Position numbers and translations under genes: made by a program. 64,000 bases of DNA from an uncultured Candidatus Binatia bacterium (GTDB taxonomy: Bacteria > Desulfobacterota > Binatia > Bin18), in assembly GCA_965200965.1 (NCBI GenBank), contig OZ241744.1, positions 2,112,001 through 2,176,000 of the forward strand. The letters run 5' to 3'. The notes below the pieces were generated by a model, which worked only from the letters and a program-made list of their open reading frames with translations, was not told the DNA's origin and ran no database searches. Numbering within the stretch: position 1 is the first letter of the stretch; every line of letters starts with the position of its first letter. Positions 1,650 through 20,534 of the stretch are shown here, in pieces.

Positions 1650-2866
1650 TCACCTCGCCCGCTGTGCCGGAGGAACACATGACAAACCAGGACATCATCG
1701 ATCTGAACGCCCACTATCTGTGCCAGACCTACGCCCGTTTTCCGGTCGCCTTTGTCCGCGGTGAGGGCTGCCGGCTGTGGGACGCCAACGGCAAGGAGTA
1801 TCTGGACCTGTTTGCCAGCTTAGCCGTCATGAACCTCGGCCAGTGCCATCCGGCGGTGGTGCGGGCCGTTCAGGAGCAGGTCGCCAGCCTGACCCACATC
1901 TCCAACCTGCACCACACCCTCCCGCAGGCCCGGCTGGCCGAACTGCTGTGTCGCAACTCGTTTGGCGACAAGGTCTTTTTCTGCAACAGCGGGGCTGAAG
2001 CCAATGAGGCGTCGATCAAGCTGGCCCGCAAATACGGCGTGGAGAAACGCGACGGGCGCTACGAGATTCTGACCGTCTTCGGTTCGTTCCACGGGCGGAC
2101 GATGGCCACGATTGCCGCCACCGGTCAGGAAAAAGTCCGCCAGGGCTTCGGCCCGGTGCTGGACGGTTTTCGCTACGTCGCCTATGACGACCTCGAAGCG
2201 ATGGAAGCCGCGGTCTCGGACAAGACGGTCGCGATCCTGGTCGAACCCATTCTGGGTGAAGGCGGGGTCGTGGTCCCCCGACCGGGGTATCTGAAGGGCG
2301 TACGGGACATCTGCGACCGCCACGGCCTGCTGCTGATTGCCGATGAGGTGCAGGTCGGCATCGGTCGCACCGGTATCCTCTTCGCCCATGAGCGCGAGGC
2401 CACCCAGCCGGATATCATGCCCCTGGCCAAAGCCCTGGGCGGCGGCCTGCCTCTCGGCGCGATGGTCGCCCGGGCCGAGGTCGCCGAGCACCTGAACCTG
2501 GGCGCGCACGGCTCAACGTTCGGCGGCAACGCGGTGGCCTGCGCCGCCGGCGTGGCCGTACTGGATACCCTGCTGAACGCCGGCGTACTGGACAACTGCC
2601 GGCAGATGGGCGCGTACTTCCTGGACCAGCTCCACACCCTGCACGACACGTTTTCGTTCATCCGCGAGGTGCGCGGCCACGGGCTGATGCTGGGTGCCGA
2701 ACTGGACCGGGACGGCGCAGACATTGTCAAAGCCTGTCTTGACGAGGGGCTGCTGATTAACTGCGCCGCGGGAACAGTGCTGCGTTTTCTCCCCCCGCTC
2801 ATCATCAGCCGGGCCGAGATTGACGAGGGGCTGACGATTCTGAAGAGGGTGCTCGCCCGGCAATGA
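1646..2866 (+). CDS. argD: Acetylornithine aminotransferase (class III PLP)
   Basis: FFCNSGAEANE, SFHGRT, DEVQxGxGRTG, LAKALGGG, HGSTFGGN; arg operon context. Start may be the ATG at 1679. Confidence 0.95.
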   Translation: MITSPAVPEEHMTNQDIIDLNAHYLCQTYARFPVAFVRGEGCRLWDANGKEYLDLFASLAVMNLGQCHPAVVRAVQEQVASLTHISNLHHTLPQARLAELLCRNSFGDKVFFCNSGAEANEASIKLARKYGVEKRDGRYEILTVFGSFHGRTMATIAATGQEKVRQGFGPVLDGFRYVAYDDLEAMEAAVSDKTVAILVEPILGEGGVVVPRPGYLKGVRDICDRHGLLLIADEVQVGIGRTGILFAHEREATQPDIMPLAKALGGGLPLGAMVARAEVAEHLNLGAHGSTFGGNAVACAAGVAVLDTLLNAGVLDNCRQMGAYFLDQLHTLHDTFSFIREVRGHGLMLGAELDRDGADIVKACLDEGLLINCAAGTVLRFLPPLIISRAEIDEGLTILKRVLARQ

Positions 2867-3771
2867 AACGCGATCTGGTCAGCATCAGCGACCTTGAGCC
2901 GGCTGAGCTTGACACGATCTTCTCCCTGGCCCGGCGACTCAAGCGTGACCGCCAGGCCGGGCGGCCGCATCCGCTGCTGAGCGGGAAGACCCTGGCAATG
3001 ATCTTTGAGAAGCCCAGCCTGCGCACCCGGGTGACCTTTGAGGCCGGCATGGTGCAGCTCGGCGGCTATGCGGTGTATCTGGCCCGGTCAGACATCGGCC
3101 TTGGTACGCGCGAATCCCCGACCGACGTGGCCCGCAACCTGTCGCGCTGGGTCGATCTGATTATGGTCCGCACCTTCTCGCACGAGAGTGTGCTCGAACT
3201 CGCCCGCCAGGCGACGATCCCGGTTATCAATGGCCTGTCGGACCGTGTCCACCCGTGTCAGATTCTGGCCGACTGTCTGAGCCTGATCGAACAGCGCGGT
3301 CGGCTCGACGGGCTGCGCATCGCCTTTGTCGGCGACGGCCATAACATCGTCAACTCGTGGCTGAATGCAGCCGCCAAGCTGCCGATTGCCTTTCGGCTGG
3401 CCTGCCCGCCGGGCTATGAGCCGAACGCCGAGGTGCTGGCCGCGGCGCGGCAAGCCGGGGCCGACATCCAGATCAGCCACGCGCTGCACGACGCGGTGGC
3501 CGGGGCCGATGTCGTCTACACCGATGTGTGGACCAGCATGGGTCAGGAACAGGAGCGCGCGGCTCGCCAGCGGGCGTTCAGTCCCTACCAGGTCAACGCC
3601 GACACCCTGGCGCTGGCCAAGCCCGAGGCGCTGGTCATGCACTGCCTGCCGGCCCACCGAGGCCAGGAGATCAGCGCCGAGGTCCTGGACGGCCCGCAGT
3701 CCATCGTCCTTGAGCAGTCCGAAAACCGCCTGCACATCCAGAAAGCCATCATGGTCTGGCTGCTCCAGTAG
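2863..3771 (+). CDS. argF: Ornithine carbamoyltransferase
   Basis: FEKPSLRTR, HPCQ, DVWTSMGQE, HCLPAHRG, QSENRLH. Confidence 0.97.
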   Translation: MKRDLVSISDLEPAELDTIFSLARRLKRDRQAGRPHPLLSGKTLAMIFEKPSLRTRVTFEAGMVQLGGYAVYLARSDIGLGTRESPTDVARNLSRWVDLIMVRTFSHESVLELARQATIPVINGLSDRVHPCQILADCLSLIEQRGRLDGLRIAFVGDGHNIVNSWLNAAAKLPIAFRLACPPGYEPNAEVLAAARQAGADIQISHALHDAVAGADVVYTDVWTSMGQEQERAARQRAFSPYQVNADTLALAKPEALVMHCLPAHRGQEISAEVLDGPQSIVLEQSENRLHIQKAIMVWLLQ

Positions 3772-3782
3772 CCCCCGGTCCG
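3771..3782 (+). repeat. Left 12-bp direct repeat (att core or target duplication)
   Basis: GCCCCCGGTCCG starting at the last base of the argF TAG; identical copy at 8925-8936. Confidence 0.85.
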
Positions 3783-3852
3783 ACAGCACCCGGCACAAAA
3801 CAGCCCGTCTTGCACAGGAAAGCAGTATGCTGATAGATTGGCTTTAAGGATG

Positions 3853-3926
3853 AGGCCCCGGTGGGAATTGAACCCACAATAACCGCTTTGCAACAACGGA
3901 TGCCTTTACCAATGGGCGACGGGGCC
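3853..3926 (-). tRNA. Atypical tRNA(Cys)-like gene with ambiguous anticodon (GCA in a 9-nt loop or UGC in a 7-nt loop)
   Basis: Reverse complement: GGCCCCG TC GCC CATTGGTAAA GGC A TCCGTTGTTGCAAAGCGGT TATT GTGGG TTCAATT CCCAC CGGGGCC T. Perfect 7-bp acceptor stem, perfect T-arm, U8, D-loop GG, U73 discriminator; CCA not encoded. Confidence 0.85.
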
Positions 3927-3951
3927 AAAACGAAGTACGGCCTGCTGTGTG

Positions 3952-4587
3952 TCAGACAGCGGGCCGTACTGCTAGAAGTTCTCTCTTCTTCTTCGCATAA
4001 ACCCCCAATCGAACCCCTGCTGCCTTCCTTGACATCTCGAACGTTTTGGAAACGACAGTCGGCGATAGCCCCCCTCGCTCTTCAAGGATTGCGAGACCTT
4101 TAGCGGGAGCAAGCAAGGCGGAGGCAAAGGCATCTGCCTGCCATTCCGTATCCCGATACACGGGAAACTTTGGCCAACTGCCACGCATCAACGCCACCAT
4201 CTTCCTATGTGGAATTTCGGCGAGCTTGATGAGCAGGTCGGAGTGTAAAACGATGTGGCCGACCTCGTGCGCAAGAGTAAGACGCGCACGCGGGTTCTTG
4301 TGTTCCAGAGCCGAATATGTCTCCTCAGACAGTGTGACGATTATTTGCCGCTCACTTGGATCATACCGGGTCAGGGCTTCAACCCCGGCAGGTAACGGCT
4401 TGACCTGATAATCAAGCTGCACCCCACATCCAGCGGCGTAGGCATCGAGTTGCTCAAATAACGGTACGCCGGGGAGAGCTTCCGTTGGTTTGTTGACCGG
4501 CAGGAGAGCGGTCCTAGCCAGGGCCGCCGCTTCCTCGATATCCGCGTAACTGCGGGGAGAGGTTGGAAATCCAAGCTGTCTGCTCAC
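3952..4587 (-). CDS. ImmA/IrrE family Zn metallopeptidase
   Basis: RARLTLAHEVGHIVLH (HExxH), EWQADAFASALLAP, C-terminal HTH-like segment; start overlaps the XRE stop (GTGA). Confidence 0.9.
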   Translation of the reverse strand: MSRQLGFPTSPRSYADIEEAAALARTALLPVNKPTEALPGVPLFEQLDAYAAGCGVQLDYQVKPLPAGVEALTRYDPSERQIIVTLSEETYSALEHKNPRARLTLAHEVGHIVLHSDLLIKLAEIPHRKMVALMRGSWPKFPVYRDTEWQADAFASALLAPAKGLAILEERGGLSPTVVSKTFEMSRKAAGVRLGVYAKKKRELLAVRPAV

Positions 4588-4946
4588 TCTTCGATCCTCC
4601 TTTCTTCCCCCTTCAATACGCGCTCGATCTCTTCCAACTTCTCCGGTGACAGGTCTTCCCAGCTTCTCAGCAGCGAAGCTCCGACTTCTCGGTGTTTGGG
4701 CGTTGGTGTAGCTGAAAGCTCATATCTCCCTCTGCTCTGCTCTGCGGCGATGATGACATCAAACGGGTCTTGACCGAGGGCTTTCGCCGCTCTCTCCAAA
4801 ATCTCAACGCGGGGCGGCGGACGGTTGCCACGCTCAATGTCTGAGATGTACGGAATGCTGAGGTCGAGCTTGCGTGCAACATCTCCCATCGTCAGCCCCG
4901 CTTCCTTACGCCAGCGACGAAATTTGTGTCCGAATTCCTGGCTCAT
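4584..4946 (-). CDS. XRE-family helix-turn-helix repressor
   Basis: FGHKFRRWRKEAGLTMGDVARKLDLSIPYISDIERGNR; GGAGGAGG SD before the ATG at 4946. Confidence 0.92.
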   Translation of the reverse strand: MSQEFGHKFRRWRKEAGLTMGDVARKLDLSIPYISDIERGNRPPPRVEILERAAKALGQDPFDVIIAAEQSRGRYELSATPTPKHREVGASLLRSWEDLSPEKLEEIERVLKGEERRIEE

Positions 4947-4994
4947 AGCCTCCTCCCTCCTGTGGGTTATTCCAATCAACGTCTGTCTGAGCCC

Positions 4995-5022
4995 ATATTA
5001 CGCAATTCAGCGGAATTGTCAA
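4995..5022 (-). promoter_or_regulatory. Putative sigma70 promoter of xre-immA with a palindromic operator between the boxes
   Basis: Minus strand TTGACA-16 nt-TAATAT; inverted repeat CAATTC-AGCG-GAATTG at 5003-5018. Confidence 0.6.
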
Positions 5023-5139
5023 CATGGGTTGCCCCACATGATTTCTCGGTTTATGCTTCTGGGCCCCTCAGACAAGACAAGCTGGGGGAGACACCCGTGC
5101 TTTGGGCGGGAACAATTTCCTAGCCGTGTGAGGTTCAAA

Positions 5140-7677
5140 TTGCCTAAAAAGTCCAGAGGAACGACGAAGATTCAGAGCTACGCGGTTGATAAAGCGTCCG
5201 GCCAGCTCATCTCGGCTGGGGCAGAAGAGATCGACGCGACACAACCCCTGCTCGAAATACTCATCAACGAAGCCGGGTGGAAGCCGGCTCAGATTGTTTC
5301 TCGCCCGCGCCAATGGCGAGTGTCAGCTGCACCTTCTGGGAAGCGAATTTGGCCTGTTGACGTTGCCCTCTTCGATGCTCCGACATCCGCGCGTGATCCT
5401 GAACACCTCCGTATCATCTGCGAATGCAAACGGCCTGATGTTGATACAGGAATTGAGCAGCTGAAAATCTATCTTGATCGTGAACCCCACGCGCGGGCTG
5501 GCCTTTGGTTTAACGGTATTGAACACAAGATCGTTTACAAAACTGCTAATGGCTACGATCTCGCACCGGATGGCACACCGATCCCCACACCGACCGATCC
5601 ATTATCTTCTCTTGAGCACCGTGTCCTTACTTTTCCTGACCTGAAGCGTGCTCCTTCCCTAGTCCCTCTCTTTCGCCGTATCCGCGACCGGCTTGCGACC
5701 CTCGATAGAAATGTCAACAGAGACGAAGAGATTTTACCGGATATCTCGTTTCTTCTTCTTCTAAAAATCCGAGATGAGCAGGATCATCGTTTCACTCCAT
5801 CAAAGCCCTTGGCGTTCCAGATTGACGAGAATGTGTCTAGGACCGCGGAAAGAATAAAGGACTTGCTAGAAAATGAAATCAAAAAGAATGCTACGCTGTT
5901 TGGTGCAGAAGAAAGAGAAATTCGGTTTCAAATTGACGACGACAGTATCTATTACATTGTCGAGAATCTTCAAAACTTCCGGCTTCTTAGCAATGATAGC
6001 GACGCAGTAGCTCAGGCGTTCCAAGTTATCAGGGGAAAAGCATACAAGGGAGAAGAAGGGCAATATTTTACTCCCCCTTCTGTCGTTCGGATCGCTGTCG
6101 CAGCGGTATCTCCTGGACCCGAGGACCGCGTGATAGACCCAGCCTGTGGGAGCGGATCTTTTCTCGCAGCTTCTCTTAACAACGTTGTCGAGCGTTTGAA
6201 GGCCCATTATGGAACTGATGCTAGTTCCATCGCCCTTGCCCGGCGGGATTGGTCCACTACTCAACTTTTTGCCATAGACAAGGACGCTGTTTCAGTACGG
6301 CTGTCGAAAGCATACCTTTCAATGCTTGGGGACGGTAGCACTCATGTCTTTAAGGCTGACTCAATTCGCAAATCGGTATGGAGTTCCGCCCTTGATGCTA
6401 CCATTCAAGACGGAGCGTTTACTATCTGTGTCACTAATCCTCCTTTCGGGACAAGACTAAAAGTTCCGAGCCACATTTGTAGGCGGGAAGACTACGAACT
6501 TTCCCGTACTATGAAGCGAAATAAGATGACTGGTAAGTGGCGGCAAACCGGAGAGCACGAATCTCGGGATCTAGGGTTGCTTTTTCTTGAGCGGAGTATT
6601 CGTCTCCTTGCTGAGGGAGGGCAATTGGCCATTGTCCTCCCCGACACTTATCTTTTTTCAGATTCTTATGCGTGGCTTGTCCAATGGCTTGCTCAGTGGA
6701 AAATTACTCATTCTATCAATGTTCCAATTGAAACATTTGAACCACATTGTCGGGCAAAGACGAGCATCATCGTCCTTGAGAAGAACCCACCTCCAAAGAA
6801 TCACACCATTATCGGATCACTTTGCGAGACGTACGGAGAAGATAAGCATGGGAAGTCCCGATATAAAATTGTCAACGGGAGAGTGACCGAGGACATTGAT
6901 GACGAGATGCGGGAAGCCTCGGAGTTGATTCGTGATCCAACAGCACCCGTTTCAAAACTGAAATTCACTTTTTCTCAGAAGGAAGCCGTGGAACGTGGCG
7001 TCCTCGTGGCGTCGTTCTGGTGGAGAAAACCTTATCTTGAAGCCCTGAACGATTTCGCCAAGGCGAACGGTTGCGACCTAGTGCCACTGAGAGAAGCAAT
7101 TGACTGCGCGGACATCGAAATTCTGGAAGGACACGGAAGCCCCAGTTCCCATTACAAAGGAAAGGGAGAAGTTCCGTATGTCAAAGTGGTCGATATTAAG
7201 AATTGGCGTGTCAATGAGAATTCCAAGTATTTTATGCCTCGGCAGATTGCTGAAAGATACACCGCAAAACGTCCTCTCAAGCCCTATGATTTATTGACAC
7301 CCACAAGAGCAAGCAAGAATATCGGCCTTTTTGGCGTCGTTATGCCTTAGCAGACCGATATGATCCTAACACGGGAGATTTTTATCTGGCGATTAAAGGA
7401 TGAAGGAAAACTGCTGGACCGTTGGCTTTTCCTGGCACTTGCCTCATTGAAAGTTGTCCATGAGCAGTTCAAATACTTGGTACTGATGCAAATGAACAGA
7501 GAAGACCTTGGTAATCGGTACAGAGATCTCCTTCTACCCATTCCCAGAACCCCGAAAGCTCGGGAGAAATGGTCCGGGCCAATTCGGCGATATTTTGAAG
7601 CGCTCACACAAGCTCGGAAGACTTACGAGGAGATCGGAAAGGAACTCGACTCTTCAATGTTTGTAGATCGGCCATGA
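5140..7677 (+). pseudogene. Type IIG/type I-like fusion (PD-(D/E)xK nuclease + m6A MTase + TRD) interrupted by in-frame TAG at 7348-7350
   Basis: Likely TTG start at 5140 after GAGGT. VDVALFD...ECKRP, GQYFTP, DPACGSGSFL, NPPF. An HsdS-like TRD (GEVPYVKVVDI...IGLFGVVMP*QTD...LLLPIP) continues in the same frame to TGA 7677. Confidence 0.8.
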
Positions 7678-7750
7678 TAATCTGAATCAGAACTTTCTCT
7701 GTCGAAGAGAATGGCTGCCGTTGAGATACCAAACAGTTCAAGGACCTTGC

Positions 7751-8869
7751 TCATAACAGCGAAGCGCACCTTTCCTGCGCAAGTTCCAGGTATTCCCTGG
7801 AGATATCAATCCCGACCGACTTGCGGTTGAAATTTCTCGCTGCCAGCAGCGTCGTACCAGTCCCGCAGAAGGGATCAAGGACAACGCCAGTGGCGGGACA
7901 TGTCGCCAGGATGGGGATTTTGCACAGGTCTTCTGGATACGGAGCGAAGTGCAGACGCCGCTTTTGGGTGTCTTCCGGGATGATGTCCCACACATCCGCC
8001 GGCTTGCTGCCCCTGGGATGGTATCGCAGAAAGTAGAAACCCTTTTCCTTCAATTCCCTGGCTCTGCCGGACACCAGTTCGGAATCAGAGTGGGTTGTCC
8101 GCTGTTGGCCGCGAATGATCATACGAAAATCTGCCAGCTCTCCCTTCTCAATCGCGCGCAGCATCCCTTCAAGCTGGGTGAAAGCGGCCCGCCTTTCCTC
8201 TGCACTCAAGGCCGTTGAGAGCTCAATCTGACGCTTGTAGCGAACCCCGGAAACGCCCGTTGCAGACACCACCGCCCCTTTTCTGATCTTTGCCTTCTTT
8301 GGGTGAGAGCGGATGGCATCCACATCGTAGTAATAGCCCTTGGGGCTCTTCACAAAATGAAAAACGTTTTCATACACATTCCGCAGCTTGTCTGGGGCAG
8401 TGTCAGGGCCGCCTTTGACCTTGTTCCATATGACGCTGTTGCGGATAATCCAGCCCTGCTGATCTGACAGGGCAAAAGCCAGCCTCCAGGGAATCCCCAA
8501 CAAACCTTTTTTCTGATAGCTGTCTCCGATATTCAGCCAGAACGATCCGGCAGGCTTCAGTATCCGGCGCACTTCGCCGAAGACCTGGCACAGCCGGGCG
8601 ATGAACTCCTGAGGGCCTTGTTCGGCCCCGATCCCCCCATTCCGGTAGGCCCGTTGCCCCCAATACGGCGGGCTGGTCATACAGCAGTCAATCGTTTCGT
8701 CGGGAAGCTCCCTGAGCACTGCCACTGCGTCACCGAGCAGCAGCAGGGGGGAAGCGGTCCCGGTAGCGAGGTATGACAGGAGACGACTTCGGTATCCCGA
8801 CGAAATAAGGGGCAGGGATTCGCCCAACGGCAAGCCAGGACTGGATTGTTGCGCCCGAGATGTCGTCAC
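7751..8869 (-). CDS. Beta-class DNA methyltransferase (SPPY, probably m4C)
   Basis: TSPPYW precedes HFAPYPE and DPFCGTGTT. Likely GTG start at 8869 after GGAGGT; the ORF-track extension to 9178 overlaps argG and is spurious. Confidence 0.9.
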   Translation of the reverse strand: MTTSRAQQSSPGLPLGESLPLISSGYRSRLLSYLATGTASPLLLLGDAVAVLRELPDETIDCCMTSPPYWGQRAYRNGGIGAEQGPQEFIARLCQVFGEVRRILKPAGSFWLNIGDSYQKKGLLGIPWRLAFALSDQQGWIIRNSVIWNKVKGGPDTAPDKLRNVYENVFHFVKSPKGYYYDVDAIRSHPKKAKIRKGAVVSATGVSGVRYKRQIELSTALSAEERRAAFTQLEGMLRAIEKGELADFRMIIRGQQRTTHSDSELVSGRARELKEKGFYFLRYHPRGSKPADVWDIIPEDTQKRRLHFAPYPEDLCKIPILATCPATGVVLDPFCGTGTTLLAARNFNRKSVGIDISREYLELAQERCASLL

Positions 8870-8924
8870 AGCGGCCCTCACCTCCATATGTATAAGCACC
8901 ACCCCTGTTTGTACAGGAGGAGAT

Positions 8925-8936
8925 GCCCCCGGTCCG
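8925..8936 (+). repeat. Right 12-bp direct repeat
   Basis: GCCCCCGGTCCG identical to 3771-3782. Confidence 0.85.
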
Positions 8937-8965
8937 TTGTCTTGCCGGCCGCGGCGTGCTAGGCT
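8937..8965 (+). promoter_or_regulatory. Putative argG promoter directly outside the island
   Basis: TTGTCT-17 nt-TAGGCT with a TGn extended -10. Confidence 0.45.
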
Positions 8966-8995
8966 GCCGGTACTCCTGTGAGCGAGTGTTGTGCT

Positions 8996-10195
8996 GTGGC
9001 AGAGAGACAAAAAGTAGTGCTGGCCTACAGCGGCGGGCTGGATACCTCGGTCATCCTGCGCTGGCTGATTGAGACCTACCGGTGTGAGGTTATCGCCTTC
9101 TGCGCCGACCTGGGGCAGGGCGAAGAACTCGACCCGGTTGAGGACAAGGCCAGACAGGTCGGGGCGAGCGCGATCCATATCGACGACCTGCGCGAAGAGT
9201 TTGTGCGCGATTTTGTGTTCCCCATGTTTCGGGCCAACGCCTTTTATGAGGGCGGCTACCTGCTCGGCACCTCAATCGCCCGGCCGCTGATCGCCAAGCG
9301 TCAGATCGAAATCGCCCGCCAGGAAGGCGCGGGGGCGGTTGCCCACGGCGCGACCGGCAAGGGCAACGACCAGGTGCGTTTTGAGCTGAGCTACTACGCG
9401 CTCGAGCCCCATATTCGGGTGATTGCGCCGTGGCGGGAATGGGAGATGAAGTCGCGCACCGAGCTGATCGCCTATGCCGAAAAATACGCCATCCCCATCA
9501 CCGTCAGCGCGGACAAGCCGTACAGTACCGACCGCAACCTGCTGCACATCAGCTTTGAGGGCGGTATGCTCGAAGACCCGTGGCAGGAACCCGGCGAGGA
9601 CATGTTTGTCCTGTCGGTATCGCCCGAGCGGGCACCGGATAGACCGGAGTATGTGGAGATCGACTTCGAGGCCGGCAACCCGACCGCGGTCAACGGCCAC
9701 ACCCTGTCGCCGGCCCGGCTGCTGGCCCGGCTCAACGAACTCGCCGGCAAACACGGCATCGGCCGGGTTGACCTGGTTGAAAACCGCTATGTCGGCATGA
9801 AATCGCGGGGCGTGTACGAAACCCCGGGCGGGACAATTCTGCACATCGCCCACGGGGCGGTTGAATCGCTGACGCTCGACCGGGAAGCGCTCCACCTGCG
9901 CGACTCACTCGTTCCGCGCTACGCCGAGATGGTCTACTACGGCTACTGGTTCGCCCCGGAGCGCGAGATGTTGCAGGCGGCCATTGACGAGTCGCAGACC
10001 AACGTCACCGGCACGGTCCGCCTCAAGCTGTATAAGGGCAACGTCATTGTTGTCGGTCGGCGCTCGGCCAAGACCCTCTACAACCCGGAGGTGGCGACCT
10101 TCGAGGCCGGCGGAGACTACCGCCAGGCCGATGCCGAGGGGTTTATCCGGATCAACGCCCTGCGGTTGCGGCTGCGGGCGCTGGCCCAGCGCTGA
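8996..10195 (+). CDS. argG: Argininosuccinate synthase
   Basis: [39 protein letters not shown]. Start GTG 8996 or 8978. Confidence 0.97.
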
Positions 10196-10213
10196 CACCG
10201 CCACCGGCCGGAT

Positions 10214-11599
10214 ATGAAGCACAAAGCACGGACCGCCACAAAAGCCTGGGCCGGACGCTTTGCCGGGGCGGCCGACCCGCGGATGGAGGCCTTCACCTCT
10301 TCGCTGGCCTTTGATCGGCGTTTGGCCCACTACGACATCCAGGGCAGCCAGGCGCACTGCCGGATGCTGGTCAAACAGAAGCTCTTAACCCGGGCCGAAG
10401 GCGAAAAAATCCGCAAAGGGCTGGAGCTGGTCGCGCGTGAGCTTGAGCAGGGCCGGTTTCCCTTTCTGGCCTCGGACGAAGATATCCACATGGCGGTTGA
10501 GCGCCGGCTGACCGAAAAAATCGGCAGCCTCGGCGGCAAGCTGCACACCGCCCGCAGCCGCAACGACCAAGTCGTGTTAGACCTCCGCCTGTATCTGCGC
10601 GAGGAAACCGGGACTGTCTGCCAACTGCTGACGGCCCTGCAAAAGCGCCTGGCCCGGCTGGCCAAACAGCACCGGGACGTGGTGATGCCGGGCTATACGC
10701 ATTTGCAGCGCGCCCAGCCGGTGCTGCTCGCCCACCACCTGCTGGCCTATTATGATATGCTGGACCGTGACGCCGCACGCGTACAGGAATGCCAGCACCG
10801 GCTCAATGTGCTGCCGCTCGGGGCCGGTGCCCTGGCCGGCACCAGCCTGCCGATTGACCGCGCCTATGTGGCCCGTCTGCTCGGCTTTGCCCGGGTCAGC
10901 GCAAACAGCCTCGATACCGTCGCCGACCGGGATTTCCTGCTTGAGTTTCTGGCGGTCAGCGCGATCATCGCCATGCACCTGAGCCGGTTTGCCGAGGAGT
11001 TGGTCCTGTGGGCCAGCAGTGAGTTTCAGTTTGTCGAGCTGCCCGACGCCTTTGCCACCGGCAGCTCAATGATGCCCCAGAAGAAGAACCCCGATGTACC
11101 CGAAATCATCCGGGGCAAGACGGGCAGGGTCTACGGCAACCTGTTTGCCCTGCTGACCACCCTCAAGGGCCTGCCCCTGGCCTATAACCGTGACCTCCAG
11201 GAAGACAAAGAACCGCTCTTTGATACGGTCGATACGGTCAAGGCCATGCTCAGCGTACTGGAGGCCATGCTCGGCCAGCTCGTGTTTCGGCCCGACCGGA
11301 TGCAGGCCGCGGCCCTGGGCGGCTTTACCCTGGCCACCGATGTGGCCGACTATCTGGTTGAAAAAGGCCTGCCGTTCAGAAAAGCCCACGACATTGTGGC
11401 CGGGGTCGTTCGTCGCTGCCTGGCCGACAACATTGGTCTGGAGCGGCTGCCGCTTGAAGAATGGCAGACCTTCTCACCGGCCTTCGGGCCGGACCTGCTG
11501 CCCCGGCTGAGCCTGGAGTCGGCGGTAGACCGCCGTCGCTCGGCCGGCGGCACCGCGCCGGCGAATGTCCATAAACGCTTACAGGAGCTTGGGGTCTGA
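10214..11599 (+). CDS. argH: Argininosuccinate lyase
   Basis: HTARSRNDQ, MPGYTHLQRAQP, GSSMMPQKKNPD, YNRDLQEDKE. Confidence 0.97.
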   Translation: MKHKARTATKAWAGRFAGAADPRMEAFTSSLAFDRRLAHYDIQGSQAHCRMLVKQKLLTRAEGEKIRKGLELVARELEQGRFPFLASDEDIHMAVERRLTEKIGSLGGKLHTARSRNDQVVLDLRLYLREETGTVCQLLTALQKRLARLAKQHRDVVMPGYTHLQRAQPVLLAHHLLAYYDMLDRDAARVQECQHRLNVLPLGAGALAGTSLPIDRAYVARLLGFARVSANSLDTVADRDFLLEFLAVSAIIAMHLSRFAEELVLWASSEFQFVELPDAFATGSSMMPQKKNPDVPEIIRGKTGRVYGNLFALLTTLKGLPLAYNRDLQEDKEPLFDTVDTVKAMLSVLEAMLGQLVFRPDRMQAAALGGFTLATDVADYLVEKGLPFRKAHDIVAGVVRRCLADNIGLERLPLEEWQTFSPAFGPDLLPRLSLESAVDRRRSAGGTAPANVHKRLQELGV

Positions 11600-17769: not shown

Positions 17770-18228
17770 ATGGACGATGCTCCTGTGGACGCCCGCACAG
17801 TGGCAGAAGCGGTGTTATGGATTCGGCGTGACGTTCAGACCACGCCGATGCACATCATCAAGCTGGTCTATCTGAGTCACGGATGGATGTTGGGGCTGTA
17901 TGATACCCCGCTGTTATGGGAGCCGGTTGAGGCCTGGCAGTACGGGCCGGTCGTTCCGAGCGTGTATCATCTCTACAAGGGATGGGGGGGCGCACCCATC
18001 ACCGCTGTTCCTGTTGACCGCTCCGCGGACCTGAGCGAGCGACAACGTGAGGTCATTGAGGAGGTGGAACAGGCGTACCACGAGTACACGGCCTTGCAAC
18101 TCTCCAACATCACACACAAGCCGGGCAGCCCGTGGGACAGTGTGTGCAGGCAATCGGGGATTGGGGCTATTATTCCCAACGAAGTGTTACGCGAGTATTA
18201 CCGTCGCCTCGCCGAGCAGGCTGCATGA
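17770..18228 (+). CDS. Panacea (DUF4065/SocA-like) antitoxin 1
   Basis: IIKLVYLSHGW, EAWQYGPVVPSVY, LSNITHKPGSPW, IPNEVLREYY. Confidence 0.9.
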   Translation: MDDAPVDARTVAEAVLWIRRDVQTTPMHIIKLVYLSHGWMLGLYDTPLLWEPVEAWQYGPVVPSVYHLYKGWGGAPITAVPVDRSADLSERQREVIEEVEQAYHEYTALQLSNITHKPGSPWDSVCRQSGIGAIIPNEVLREYYRRLAEQAA

Positions 18229-18280
18229 GCCGCAAGCCGGCGATCCGCCCTGAACCGGCAAGTGGAGCCGCTGACCACAA

Positions 18281-18382
18281 GGAGGGCTGTCAATCCGTTG
18301 GCGGTATGCTACGCTCGCACCATGAAGGAATTGAAGCGCGCAGAGCGTCGTATGAAGGAGGACATGGCTAGAAAGAATCCGC
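18281..18382 (+). repeat. 102-bp direct repeat copy 1 (toxin C-terminus/XRE-antitoxin N-terminus junction)
   Basis: 6 mismatches by eye versus 19000-19101; encodes TMKELKRAERRMKEDMARKNP. Confidence 0.92.
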
Positions 18383-18507
18383 GCCTCGGATCAACGCTTG
18401 AAAGCCTGCTCCGGGAGGACGGCAGCTATGCAGACACGAAGAATCAGGCGATCAAGGCCGTCCTGGCTTACAAGCTGGCGGAAGCAAAGGATCACAGGCC
18501 GGAGTAG
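18322..18507 (+). pseudogene. Remnant of a Gp49/HigB-type toxin end plus truncated XRE antitoxin
   Basis: ELKRAERRMKE, then MARKNPRLGSTLESLLREDG...AIKAVLAYKLAEA, cut off by the convergent Panacea gene before the HTH. Confidence 0.6.
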
Positions 18508-18926
18508 TATTCTGCCATGTCGGCGTAGCGGATCACCGCGTTTCCCCGCTCGCCGGCAGCAAGGCGATGTCGTGTCCGCGTCTTGCGCCAGGGCTGTTCC
18601 ATGTGGCTCAGATCGCTTAACCACTGCGAAGATTTGTCACCGTAGTAGGCCAGGACCGCATCAACCGTGTCACGCTGTTCGCGGTTGAGCTTTCGAGAGA
18701 ACCCGCCGCCTATCCGCGACACGCGGTACCGGCCACTGTGCGCGTCGTAGAGCTTGCGGACGACAGGACCGTTGGCCCAGGCTTCAATCCGCTCGCTGAA
18801 CAAGGGTTTGTCGTCCCACACCAGCGACCACGCCTGCGCGTAGTACACGAGTTTCTGCAACTTCATCGCAGTCATGGGCCCAGACTTCAGCAGGATGTAG
18901 GCGGCCACATCCAATACACTGACCAC
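18492..18926 (-). CDS. Panacea (DUF4065/SocA-like) antitoxin 2
   Basis: MKLQKLVYYAQAW, EAWANGPVV, LSDLSHMEQPW, MAEYY; AGGAGG SD. Confidence 0.92.
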   Translation of the reverse strand: MVSVLDVAAYILLKSGPMTAMKLQKLVYYAQAWSLVWDDKPLFSERIEAWANGPVVRKLYDAHSGRYRVSRIGGGFSRKLNREQRDTVDAVLAYYGDKSSQWLSDLSHMEQPWRKTRTRHRLAAGERGNAVIRYADMAEYYSGL

Positions 18927-18999
18927 GGCTTCCTCCTTTGCTCAGCCCTCAACAATCATGGACGCGGGTCATGTGTCAACGCAGCGGGAATCAAGACAT

Positions 19000-19101
19000 G
19001 GAGGGCTGTCAATCCGTTCGCGGTATGCCACGCTCGTACCATGAAGGAATTGAAGCGCGCAGAGCGTCGTATGAAGGAGGACATGGCGAAGAAGAATCCG
19101 C
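19000..19101 (+). repeat. 102-bp direct repeat copy 2
   Basis: GGAGGGCTGTCAATCCGTT...ATGGCGAAGAAGAATCCGC; ends just before the dndB-like stop. Confidence 0.92.
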
Positions 19102-19118
19102 ACACGGGAGCTTTGAAA

Positions 19119-20534
19119 CTAGGCGGATACCGCGTCACGCATCGCTCTGATTTCCTTCCACATGGCAGCGTGATTATCGCCTTCAGGGAGCGTTCCTAAC
19201 CGCGCTCGCCAGCTCTCCTTCAGTAGACTCTCTTCTTGTTTGTTTGCTTGGCGAATGCCGGTTATCCACCGGAGCAACCGTTCAGTGGTATTCACAGCAT
19301 TCTTTCTGTCCTCGTTCCTCATTGACCATTTCTTCGTGTCAGAAGCAAACACAAGCAACAGGCCACGCCACGGAACATGATGGAGTCTCCAGTCGACCTT
19401 TGCCAACGGGCTCAAAGCCATACGCGCGTCTTCCGAATCAGGTTTCTCGGGGGAAGGCAAACGCGTATCCAACAACGCCCGAGCTATCTGTATCATCACT
19501 TCCTGCCCGATCGGCCAGAAAAGGGCGTTGTCCGCAACCTGTCTGTCTGACCCGTCGGCTTGATGGTTTCTGGCATCGGCGGGGCTCAAGGCCAAGTCGG
19601 GTACCGCAGCAATGAGGGCGTCCCAATAGAGCTTGAGTTCTTCAAACAGTTCATCCAGATATTCTTCTGGAGGTCGAAAGCGCGTGAACTGCTTCACGCT
19701 GCTCTCAAGCTCCGCCTCTGGACCGGGACCCCAGCCTCTAGCGGACCGGTCGGGGGTTGTGAGTAAGACTTGGTTCATGTCGTACAGTTGCTGGAGACTC
19801 GTGAAATGCGAAGTCCCTTCGTGAAGGGATCGTCCTTTGGTCTGCACTCTGACCGATTCCAGGTGTCGCCCCGGCGCTTTGAAAAAGTCGTGAGTGGCGA
19901 TGAGACGGCGGGTCAGGATTGCGAATATATCGTCCTCGTCCATGATGATGTTGGTGTCTCGGTCTGTCGGTTTGGTATACCTGTTGAGGCTGGAGAACAG
20001 ACGCCGGTAGGACACAAGCCACTCTTCTTCAGGTGACTCAGCAGGACGGATCACCATCAGGACCGAGATTTCTTCATTCTCGAAGTCGGGCGGGGGCTCG
20101 ACCCTCTCTGACTCGTCCTCGGGGAGCAAAAGGGTCTTGATTGCTTTTAACCGATGCTGACCATTTAGGGCATAGTAGTTTTGGTCTCCCGAGAACCGCA
20201 ACACACCGAACGACTGCTCGATATTCTCCTCATCGGCAAGGATGGCAAACTGGGGGTCATCGGCCACGCTTACGGGGTAGAATTTCGGCGATCCGCCAAC
20301 TGCGGCGACCACGAGAGACGCAAAGAAGCGATCCGCGCGGCCTTTCAAATAGGTGACGATTTCCTTCTTGACGCGGCTCTCTTTAATCGCCCGCTGAATA
20401 GCCTCGTCAAGCGTATAGTCGTTGTGAACCTGAGAACCGAATTTGACCTCCGCGGCGACCTCCCGCATCCGCATCTTGACGATGTAGTAGGTCCAGTCTC
20501 CCATGTGCGCCTTGATCGCAGGATAGAGTTGCAT
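19119..20534 (-). CDS. DndB-like DGQHR-domain protein (NGQHR variant)
   Basis: YPAIKAHMGDWTYY, AIQRAIKESR, RFFASLVVA, YALNGQHRLKAI, RRLFSSLNRYTKP; AAGGAGG SD. Confidence 0.85.
   Translation of the reverse strand: MQLYPAIKAHMGDWTYYIVKMRMREVAAEVKFGSQVHNDYTLDEAIQRAIKESRVKKEIVTYLKGRADRFFASLVVAAVGGSPKFYPVSVADDPQFAILADEENIEQSFGVLRFSGDQNYYALNGQHRLKAIKTLLLPEDESERVEPPPDFENEEISVLMVIRPAESPEEEWLVSYRRLFSSLNRYTKPTDRDTNIIMDEDDIFAILTRRLIATHDFFKAPGRHLESVRVQTKGRSLHEGTSHFTSLQQLYDMNQVLLTTPDRSARGWGPGPEAELESSVKQFTRFRPPEEYLDELFEELKLYWDALIAAVPDLALSPADARNHQADGSDRQVADNALFWPIGQEVMIQIARALLDTRLPSPEKPDSEDARMALSPLAKVDWRLHHVPWRGLLLVFASDTKKWSMRNEDRKNAVNTTERLLRWITGIRQANKQEESLLKESWRARLGTLPEGDNHAAMWKEIRAMRDAVSA

Follow-up and report, generated by a model that had tools for sequence, protein, structure and literature searches.

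Few purposeful natural mistranslating tRNAs are known, and the best-studied bacterial ones bring their own synthetase. These are the tRNA-ProX species (ProA, ProN and ProT) of Streptomyces and Kitasatospora, which are found with ProRSx and are described as mistranslating in E. coli (PMC10404621, PMC11415595). Allo-tRNAs with Leu anticodons are reported to insert Ser and arrest growth, and in the same report HisRS charges a tRNA that carries GUG at positions 35–37 (PMC5389517). The supplement of that study (Mukai et al. 2017, PMC5389517) lists, in at least 24 rows, a group labelled 'tRNA0 (7/5, U73)' that was found in soil metatranscriptomes and whose members combine a Cys-type body with the anticodon CGC, UGC or GGA; in the accessible part of the paper, tRNA0 is named once in the main text and the assays in the legend of Fig. 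S7 concern HisRS, GlyRS and ThrRS only. Among regulatory systems, CapH and CapP are described as a pair in which ssDNA-activated cleavage derepresses a defence operon (bioRxiv 10.1101/2022.04.27.489752).

Here we describe a tRNA gene at positions 3853–3926 (−) of the window, the 64,000-nucleotide stretch of Candidatus Binatia DNA that was analysed. The gene, which an earlier note on this DNA had read as a Cys-type tRNA with a register-ambiguous anticodon arm, is a real, conserved and rare accessory tRNA that combines a Cys acceptor identity with an Ala anticodon.

The tRNA gene and its island

The gene is the sole tRNA of the window. ARAGORN, proposed by the earlier note for the isotype check, calls it tRNA-Ala(UGC) at 3852–3926 (−), and Rfam RF00005 matches 3853–3926 with a score of 47.1 bits (gathering score 29; E = 1.9e-8). 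Annotation pipelines give such genes the label tRNA-Ala, which hides the family. The MFE fold is a cloverleaf with a 7/7 acceptor stem, a 3-bp D-stem, a 5/5 T-stem and a 5-nt variable loop; its z-score is −2.27, and 3 of 200 shuffles were as stable. The acceptor and T-arm pairing, U73, C3:G70 and G32 are all as had been claimed. About 2 extra nucleotides had also been counted, which holds in comparison with a Cys tRNA whose variable loop has 4 nt, whereas only 1 nt is in excess of the host tRNA-Cys, with its 5-nt loop; the extra nucleotide lies between the D-stem and the anticodon stem. U15·U48, taken from the fold, is not a standard Levitt pair.

The anticodon arm (3883–3899, −) consists of the stem CCGUU/AGCGG and the loop GUUGCAA, in the register that is kept in the two relatives L051 and L076 described below. 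The anticodon UGC lies at 3892–3890 and a GCA triplet at 3891–3889, that is, at positions 35–37. Two alternative folds had been proposed, one with a 9-nt loop containing GCA and one with a 7-nt loop containing UGC. These are one helix that differs only in the closure of the innermost U-A pair, and in the isolated arm of the window copy this pair is closed with a probability of about 0.95, such that the 7-nt loop dominates. In this loop the features of tRNA-Ala are present (an NGC anticodon, U33, A37 and a length of 7 nt), and the acceptor lacks those of tRNA-Ala, G3·U70 and A73. Conversely, the acceptor and D-arm are of Cys type, with G1-C72, G2-C71, C3-G70 and U73 as in tRNA-Cys, and the loop departs from tRNA-Cys in that its GCA occupies positions 35–37, not 34–36 of a 7-nt loop.

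The host has its own set of one normal tRNA-Cys and three tRNA-Ala genes. All three of the latter carry U70 and A73, and the combination G70-C71-C72-U73 is found in only 2 of the 48 scored host tRNA genes, namely the tRNA-Cys and the island tRNA, which bears out the Cys-type acceptor of the earlier note. Raw similarity with the anticodon arm omitted places the window copy nearest to Ala(CGC), at 37.0 versus 35.5 for Cys, and Cys comes first by raw body similarity in only 3 of 9 members of the family. The major determinants of Cys identity are described as U73 and GCA, and the determinant read by AlaRS as G3·U70 (PMC9976931). Among the host enzymes, only CysRS would appear from these elements to fit the acceptor of the island tRNA.

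The tRNA gene is carried by a 5.2-kb island that lies between argF and argG, with argB-argD-argF to its left and argG-argH to its right among the window ORFs. The island is flanked by a 12-bp direct repeat, with the left copy at 3771–3782 (+), at the argF stop, and the right copy at 8925–8936 (+), before argG. In G003, a genome of the same genus, the site is empty and holds a single repeat copy without insert: the matches of locus L003 to 2801–3782 and 8925–10300 overlap by 12 nt. An att-site remnant was rejected, as there is no duplicated tRNA fragment, the 12-bp repeat bounds the island and the empty site has no tRNA-sized gap. The claims that the 3' end of the tRNA is not duplicated and that the gene is cargo rather than the att site both hold: other BLAST matches in the genome are at most 18 nt, a self-match of the upstream hairpin aside, and the island has its own repeat. 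In this genus, the interval between argF and argG is a hotspot for insertions (window 3771–8936 and loci L002, L005 and L006): it is empty in G003, holds the second methyltransferase alone in G007 and has other inserts in G005 and G006.

Upstream of the tRNA on the same strand is a gene for an IrrE/ImmA (M78) metallopeptidase with an intact HEVGH motif (3952–4587, −; Pfam PF06114), the stop of which is separated from the tRNA by 25 nt (3927–3951), as had been noted. The protein is CapP-like (PADLOC capP, E = 7.6e-14, in a match that spans only profile positions 23–154 of 242). It is preceded by a gene for an XRE-type HTH repressor that is CapH-like (4584–4946, −; Pfam HTH_31/HTH_3; PADLOC capH, E = 5.9e-12), whose start, the ATG at 4946, was picked by eye in an ORF open to 4979. 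A sigma-70-like promoter, TTGACA-16-TAATAT, points toward the HTH-peptidase-tRNA genes from 4995–5022 (−) and is weak evidence, with 1 found versus 0.6 expected. Divergent from these genes is a restriction-modification-like (RM-like) N6-methyltransferase gene (5128–7677, +; start approximate), in which an in-frame TAG at 7348–7350 marks either a pseudogene or a sequencing error; the copy in G500 is uninterrupted and encodes 837 aa. An N6/N4 DNA methyltransferase gene (7751–8887, −; start approximate), found after argF in G007 as well, completes the set, and no integrase is present among the island ORFs scanned. Elsewhere in the window, a second low-GC patch at 17770–20534 carries a gene with a SocA/Panacea antitoxin domain along with one of the DndB family and is probably another defence or toxin-antitoxin (TA) insertion.

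Hairpins lie on both sides of the tRNA. The one downstream, terminator-like and 35 nt from the tRNA (3804–3818, −), is a consensus match only, with 3 found versus 1.2 expected in the region. Upstream, a strong 37-nt leader hairpin (3934–3970, −; z −4.7), absent from the earlier reading, fills the spacer, ends 7 nt before the tRNA and overlaps the last codons and the stop of the peptidase gene. It is followed by a U-rich tract, a possible terminator, and is 33/37 identical in L051/L203, with changes that keep the pairs. The C-terminal residues AVRPAV of the peptidase (3952–3972) are encoded within this hairpin; the proteins P0001 and P0002 have the same end and P0003–P0005 do not. The arrangement suggests that a hairpin-tRNA module may have been appended to the peptidase gene, and that the P0002 locus may have the module too.

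Relatives of the island tRNA

Homologues were sought through the neighbouring peptidase, with no tRNA pattern imposed, by using an alignment built from 12 of 18 matches. The search yielded 80 genome loci, and 5 of 301 genomes in the class. The same kind of tRNA is present at 2 of 83 peptidase loci, L051 and L076, both of which are training sequences of the search model, and with so few loci a strict peptidase-tRNA system is unsupported. The tRNA of the G500 loci is identical to that of L051 (Candidatus Binatia) and was counted once.

Over a shared 3.8 kb, L051 and the island are 80% identical. The tRNAs of the two agree at 70/74 positions, and each of the four differences falls at an unpaired position (P = 0.04), while third-codon-position identity is 59% for the peptidase, 75% for the HTH and 63% for the RM gene. 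The probability of 70/74 identity is 1e-5 at a background divergence of 25% and 0.13 at 10%. Taken together, these comparisons argue for purifying selection on the tRNA. The L051 loop, UUUGCAC, keeps U33-UGC-A37, and G32, which had been called unusual, is replaced there by U32, although it recurs in the metagenome member L134. Protein decay has struck different genes in the two islands: in the window it is the RM gene, whereas in G500 that gene is whole and the peptidase gene carries a frameshift, a stop and a damaged HExxH. The tRNA has persisted in both. G500 also has normal tRNA-Cys and Ala(UGC) genes.

The second locus, L076, is from an Isosphaeraceae MAG whose peptidase is 32% identical. 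A diverged copy of the tRNA, with a perfect 6-bp anticodon stem, the loop CUUGCAU and its own leader hairpin, is located upstream of the HTH-peptidase pair. Homologues with a canonical 7-nt GCA loop would, by the earlier note, have refuted its reading; none turned up, as L051 and L076, found through the peptidase, both have U33-UGC-A37. A strong sigma-70-like promoter (11/12) runs antisense across the L076 tRNA (L076:2420–2447, −), and antisense control is possible. A peptidase relative without the tRNA, L046 (G033), has an Arg/Pro-rich ORF of ~40 codons downstream with hairpin-like flanks.

Metagenomes were searched with a pattern that fixed the AGGCA D-stem, the GCCU end, the extra nucleotide, U33 and R37 and left the anticodon free. 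This gave 18 matches, 9 with GCA, 8 with NGC and 1 with CUC. The acceptor is 7/7 paired in 12 of the 18 (6 NGC, 5 GCA and 1 CUC), such that 6 of the 7 intact non-GCA matches read NGC, with U, A or C at position 34; these six are L134 and L135 (AGC), L136, L142 and L145 (UGC) and L144 (CGC). Two further matches, L132 and L137, read UGC and have broken acceptors. Since L132 is a broken Cys remnant, the spacing of the pattern alone can give NGC. L138 and L143 repeat the broken L131 sequence. Beyond L051, eight diverged intact copies carry UGC, AGC or CGC. All members have C3:G70 and U73, which the pattern fixed for the metagenome matches and which were free for the window copy, L051 and L076. A viral scan added L201:2498–2572, a standard-length Cys-type tRNA with CGC and an encoded CCA, located in a prophage between a PDC-M04A-like gene, with which it is convergent, and an integrase gene, which it lies upstream of and diverges from.

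Ten sequences were aligned (the window copy, L051, L076, the six NGC matches and the ambiguous L146), leaving out the other 11 metagenome matches and L201. When the anticodon stem is taken as 6 bp, 92.3% of cells are paired and 12 of 21 pairs show two-sided changes; no shuffle of 500 matches the percentage paired and slid controls reach at most 60%, a result that the relatedness of the sequences inflates. The anticodon helix alone is 73% paired versus 100% in the other three helices, and a −1 slide, which gives an 8-nt loop, reaches 65%. The outer anticodon-stem pair is C-G or G-C in 6/10, and the innermost position often has a weak pair or a mismatch. A 7-nt loop is preferred in the window copy, L051, L076 and L134 (closing pair P 0.79–0.95), an 8-nt loop in L136 and a 9-nt loop in L135, L142, L144 and L145. 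Thus, the register ambiguity seen by the earlier note is a property of the family. A leader hairpin (z-score −2.2 or lower) was found ahead of 8 of 11 family-set genes and of 1 of 8 comparison genes. Among the neighbours, drawn from 59 ORFs of the related loci, are a transposase of the IS1 type, a fusion of a methylase with Mrr and a TA-like pair.

These results weigh on the possibility that the gene is a tRNA-Cys copy that is decaying or evolving neutrally, a leftover att site or a product of misassembly, which we regard as highly improbable. It would account for the U15·U48 combination, the rarity of the tRNA, the decay of other island genes and the absence of an encoded CCA, although CCA is encoded in just 7 of the 48 scored host tRNA genes. 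Against it stand the conservation and covariation of the family, as a result of which the earlier argument against simple decay is upheld, and the island's own 12-bp repeat. Moreover, the same extra nucleotide in the independent genome of L051 rules out a private mutation or assembly slip, the raw reads of the window apart.

Several other irregular tRNA genes came to light. At L136:627–729, just after the family member, is a second one with a Ser-type body (G73 and a long variable arm) and UAU, followed by a Gp49/HI1420-like TA pair. L147:2980–3053 and L148 are Cys-type tRNAs with 1 extra anticodon-arm nucleotide, either a variant or a sequencing error; they have a hairpin upstream and lie beside AhpC, in what looks like core sequence. 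The phage tRNA-like genes L176:2483–2552 and L169:2490–2559 have UGC loops, 2 nt between the D and anticodon stems and A73, and differ from the island family in acceptor type.

The family is rare in the genomes searched. DNA searches returned short T-arm matches only from phage (56 records, none covering 80%), no relatives of the island tRNA from plasmids and, from 401 same-phylum genomes, only the window's own genome and a weak tRNA-Leu match. The first versions of the viral pattern scans gave 0 matches; a version with 22 matches included none of the family, one with 45 included none that joined an intact Cys-type acceptor to NGC, as judged by eye, and the scan for the standard-length form gave 3 matches, of which 1 (L201) is real. 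Pattern surveys found 0/401 in the class of G693, 1/301 in the phylum of G692, which is the seed itself, and 4/301 in the window's class, where 2 are real (G000 and G500) and the others are a chance match and a tRNA-Thr. A wider pattern found 0/231 in the phylum of G694.

Candidate functions

Among the mechanisms that had been put forward, all of them putative, we rank Ala-to-Cys mistranslation highest, next a decoy or uncharged signal and then frameshifting. The explanation that we tentatively favour, at somewhat short of an even chance, is that host CysRS weakly charges the tRNA, leading to insertion of Cys at Ala codons, and that the gene is probably co-transcribed with the CapH/CapP-like pair. 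It is favoured because only CysRS seems to fit the acceptor and because opening of the inner pair could present GCA. The kept UGC register, the purifying selection, the NGC anticodons of the family, its covariation and the single host CysRS also speak for it, and tRNA-ProX and the allo-tRNAs are precedents. In such a scheme, the tRNA and the HTH-peptidase pair would share a transcript, from which RNase P and the CCA-adding enzyme would produce the mature tRNA. CysRS would then charge it at reduced efficiency through U73 and the first three base pairs, aided by GCA at 35–37; the weak innermost pair would open and present GCA to CysRS, while the closed form would offer NGC to the ribosome, which would read GCN with the 7-nt loop (U33, N34-G35-C36, A37). 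The resulting Ala-to-Cys errors may serve as a brake linked to stress or defence, and cleavage of the CapH-like repressor by the CapP-like peptidase in response to DNA damage is a possible trigger for its release.

The GCA at 35–37 of the island tRNA lies 14 nt before the T-stem, and in a tRNA-Cys with a 4-nt variable loop G34 also lies 14 nt before the T-stem. The host CysRS is single-copy and aligns with E. coli CysRS through the C-terminal anticodon-binding helix, and changes in the anticodon loop are described as lowering CysRS efficiency dramatically (PMC4536326). A dedicated synthetase was found neither among the 24 window ORFs nor among the 59 ORFs of related loci, and as for an editing partner the host has no PF04073 match. 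A PF04073 gene does occur near L146, past a normal tRNA-Gly.

Several points count against Ala-to-Cys mistranslation. Any Ala anticodon that precedes A37 yields GCA at 35–37, and the pattern itself imposed both U33 and R37, along with the AGGCA D-stem and the GCCU end, on the metagenome members. Unlike tRNA-ProX, no member scanned has a synthetase beside it, and the nearest precedent for register-shifted recognition, the tRNA that HisRS charges through GUG at 35–37, is reported not to have translated in E. coli (PMC5389517). The sensitivity of CysRS to anticodon-loop changes, the raw body similarity, U15·U48, the −1 slide and the 9-nt loops of four members count against it as well. The least secure step of the mechanism is control through the peptidase: in L076 the tRNA flanks the opposite end of the operon, and the G500 peptidase is a pseudogene. 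In addition, the leader hairpin and its U-tract could terminate transcription before the tRNA.

Some of the same evidence bears on a tRNA-shaped RNA that delivers no amino acid, a serious if lesser possibility. Such an RNA would be a decoy or sponge for CysRS, cysteine, an anticodon nuclease or a toxin, or an uncharged reader of Ala codons that stalls ribosomes and so triggers the stringent response. The register-shifted tRNA1 of Mukai et al. is reported to be charged and yet to have inserted nothing, and most allo-tRNA(UAU) near TA genes are reported as translation-inactive (PMC5389517). The anticodon stem is the weakest helix of the family by the pairing figures above, the neighbours are TA-like, IS and methylase genes, and there is no adjacent cognate synthetase. 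On the other hand, G35-C36-A37 is kept, U33 is kept too in the copies found without a pattern, and N34 varies like a wobble base. A decoy, moreover, would sit in an island in which domain and PADLOC scans revealed no nuclease or toxin gene, and a purely uncharged signal would have no obvious need for a Cys-type acceptor across lineages.

The lengthened arm also invites a frameshifting role, in which a Cys-charged tRNA would use its enlarged anticodon arm for +1 slippage at GCN or UGCN codons. The 1 extra arm nucleotide, the 8-nt loop of L136 and a −1 slide that nearly equals the 7-nt register are in keeping with this. The 7-nt loop nevertheless dominates in the window copy, L051, L076 and L134, and the frameshift in the G500 peptidase gene, accompanied as it is by a stop and a damaged HExxH, reflects decay and not a programmed site. 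We therefore consider frameshifting improbable.

A nuclease-resistant spare had been proposed too, which would be a tRNA-Cys that decodes UGY through a 9-nt loop and resists anticodon nucleases. Its GCA is at the canonical T-stem distance, four members have 9-nt loops and, in the fragmented genome G692, the pattern found an Ala gene and no canonical Cys gene. In the GCA register, however, L051 would have C and L076 would have U at position 37, and G follows an A or a C in L134, L135, L144 and L201. Both the host and G500, moreover, possess a normal tRNA-Cys. We regard this as the least probable of the readings considered.

Returning to Ala-to-Cys mistranslation, the reading can be extended to the family as a whole. 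Its members would be mobile and scattered, each a single-gene Ala-to-Cys mistranslator that needs no synthetase of its own; CysRS would read the GCA register and the ribosome NGC, and the hairpin-tRNA module would be an RNA effector in defence/TA loci, here downstream of a DNA-damage-sensing repressor-peptidase switch. This extension is possible but rather unlikely.

Comparison with known systems

If the favoured reading is true, the island tRNA would represent a new substitution, a means to learn whether synthetase and ribosome can read one loop in two registers, and a mistranslation system tied to defence islands. Its neighbours resemble CapH/CapP in that an HTH protein and a PF06114 peptidase, with PADLOC capH and capP matches, are divergent from a defence-type gene. 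The divergent gene is, however, RM-like and not CBASS, and a tRNA trails the pair, a feature without mention in the accessible part of 10.1101/2022.04.27.489752.

With tRNA-ProX, the functional precedent, the island family shares a dual identity, including an Ala (AGC) anticodon, the A34 of which recurs in L134 and L135. In contrast, tRNA-ProX has a Pro body and usually an adjacent dedicated synthetase, and the island tRNA has a Cys-type body and no adjacent synthetase. Allo-tRNAs and selC* tRNAs are likewise accessory, of mismatched identity and near TA or mobile genes (PMC5389517, PMC7609411), and the selC* tRNA-Cys has U73, Cys identity and, in some species, a UCA anticodon (PMC7609411). 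These tRNAs are described with an 8/4 or 9/3 branch and a long variable arm, and selC* with selB*/cysS*, whereas the island tRNA has a 7/5 branch and a short variable loop.

The closest likeness is to tRNA0. A literature search that reached subscription journals only to a small extent found no description of Cys-bodied tRNAs with Ala anticodons beyond the supplement rows of Mukai et al. Compared by eye, the tRNA0 sequences in the supplement resemble the island tRNA in the GGCC acceptor start, the GCC...GGCA D-arm, the GCCU end, the 7/5 branch, U73 and the Ala anticodon, and like the relatives of the island tRNA they were found near TA systems. One UGC tRNA0 has the anticodon stem-loop of L136 minus 1 nucleotide, and L136, like the tRNA0 polycistrons, precedes a second irregular tRNA and a TA-like pair. 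The two differ in that tRNA0 has a 5' anticodon arm of standard length and heads polycistrons with tRNA1/tRNA2, while the island tRNA has 1 extra nucleotide, stands alone and has a leader hairpin in an HTH-peptidase-RM island. Thus, as far as seen in the accessible sources, the tRNA0 group was listed in 2017 and apparently neither interpreted nor tested with CysRS, and the island tRNA is new in its extended arm, its leader hairpin and its CapH/CapP-like and RM context; it offers the 2017 group a testable identity, now with whole-genome context.
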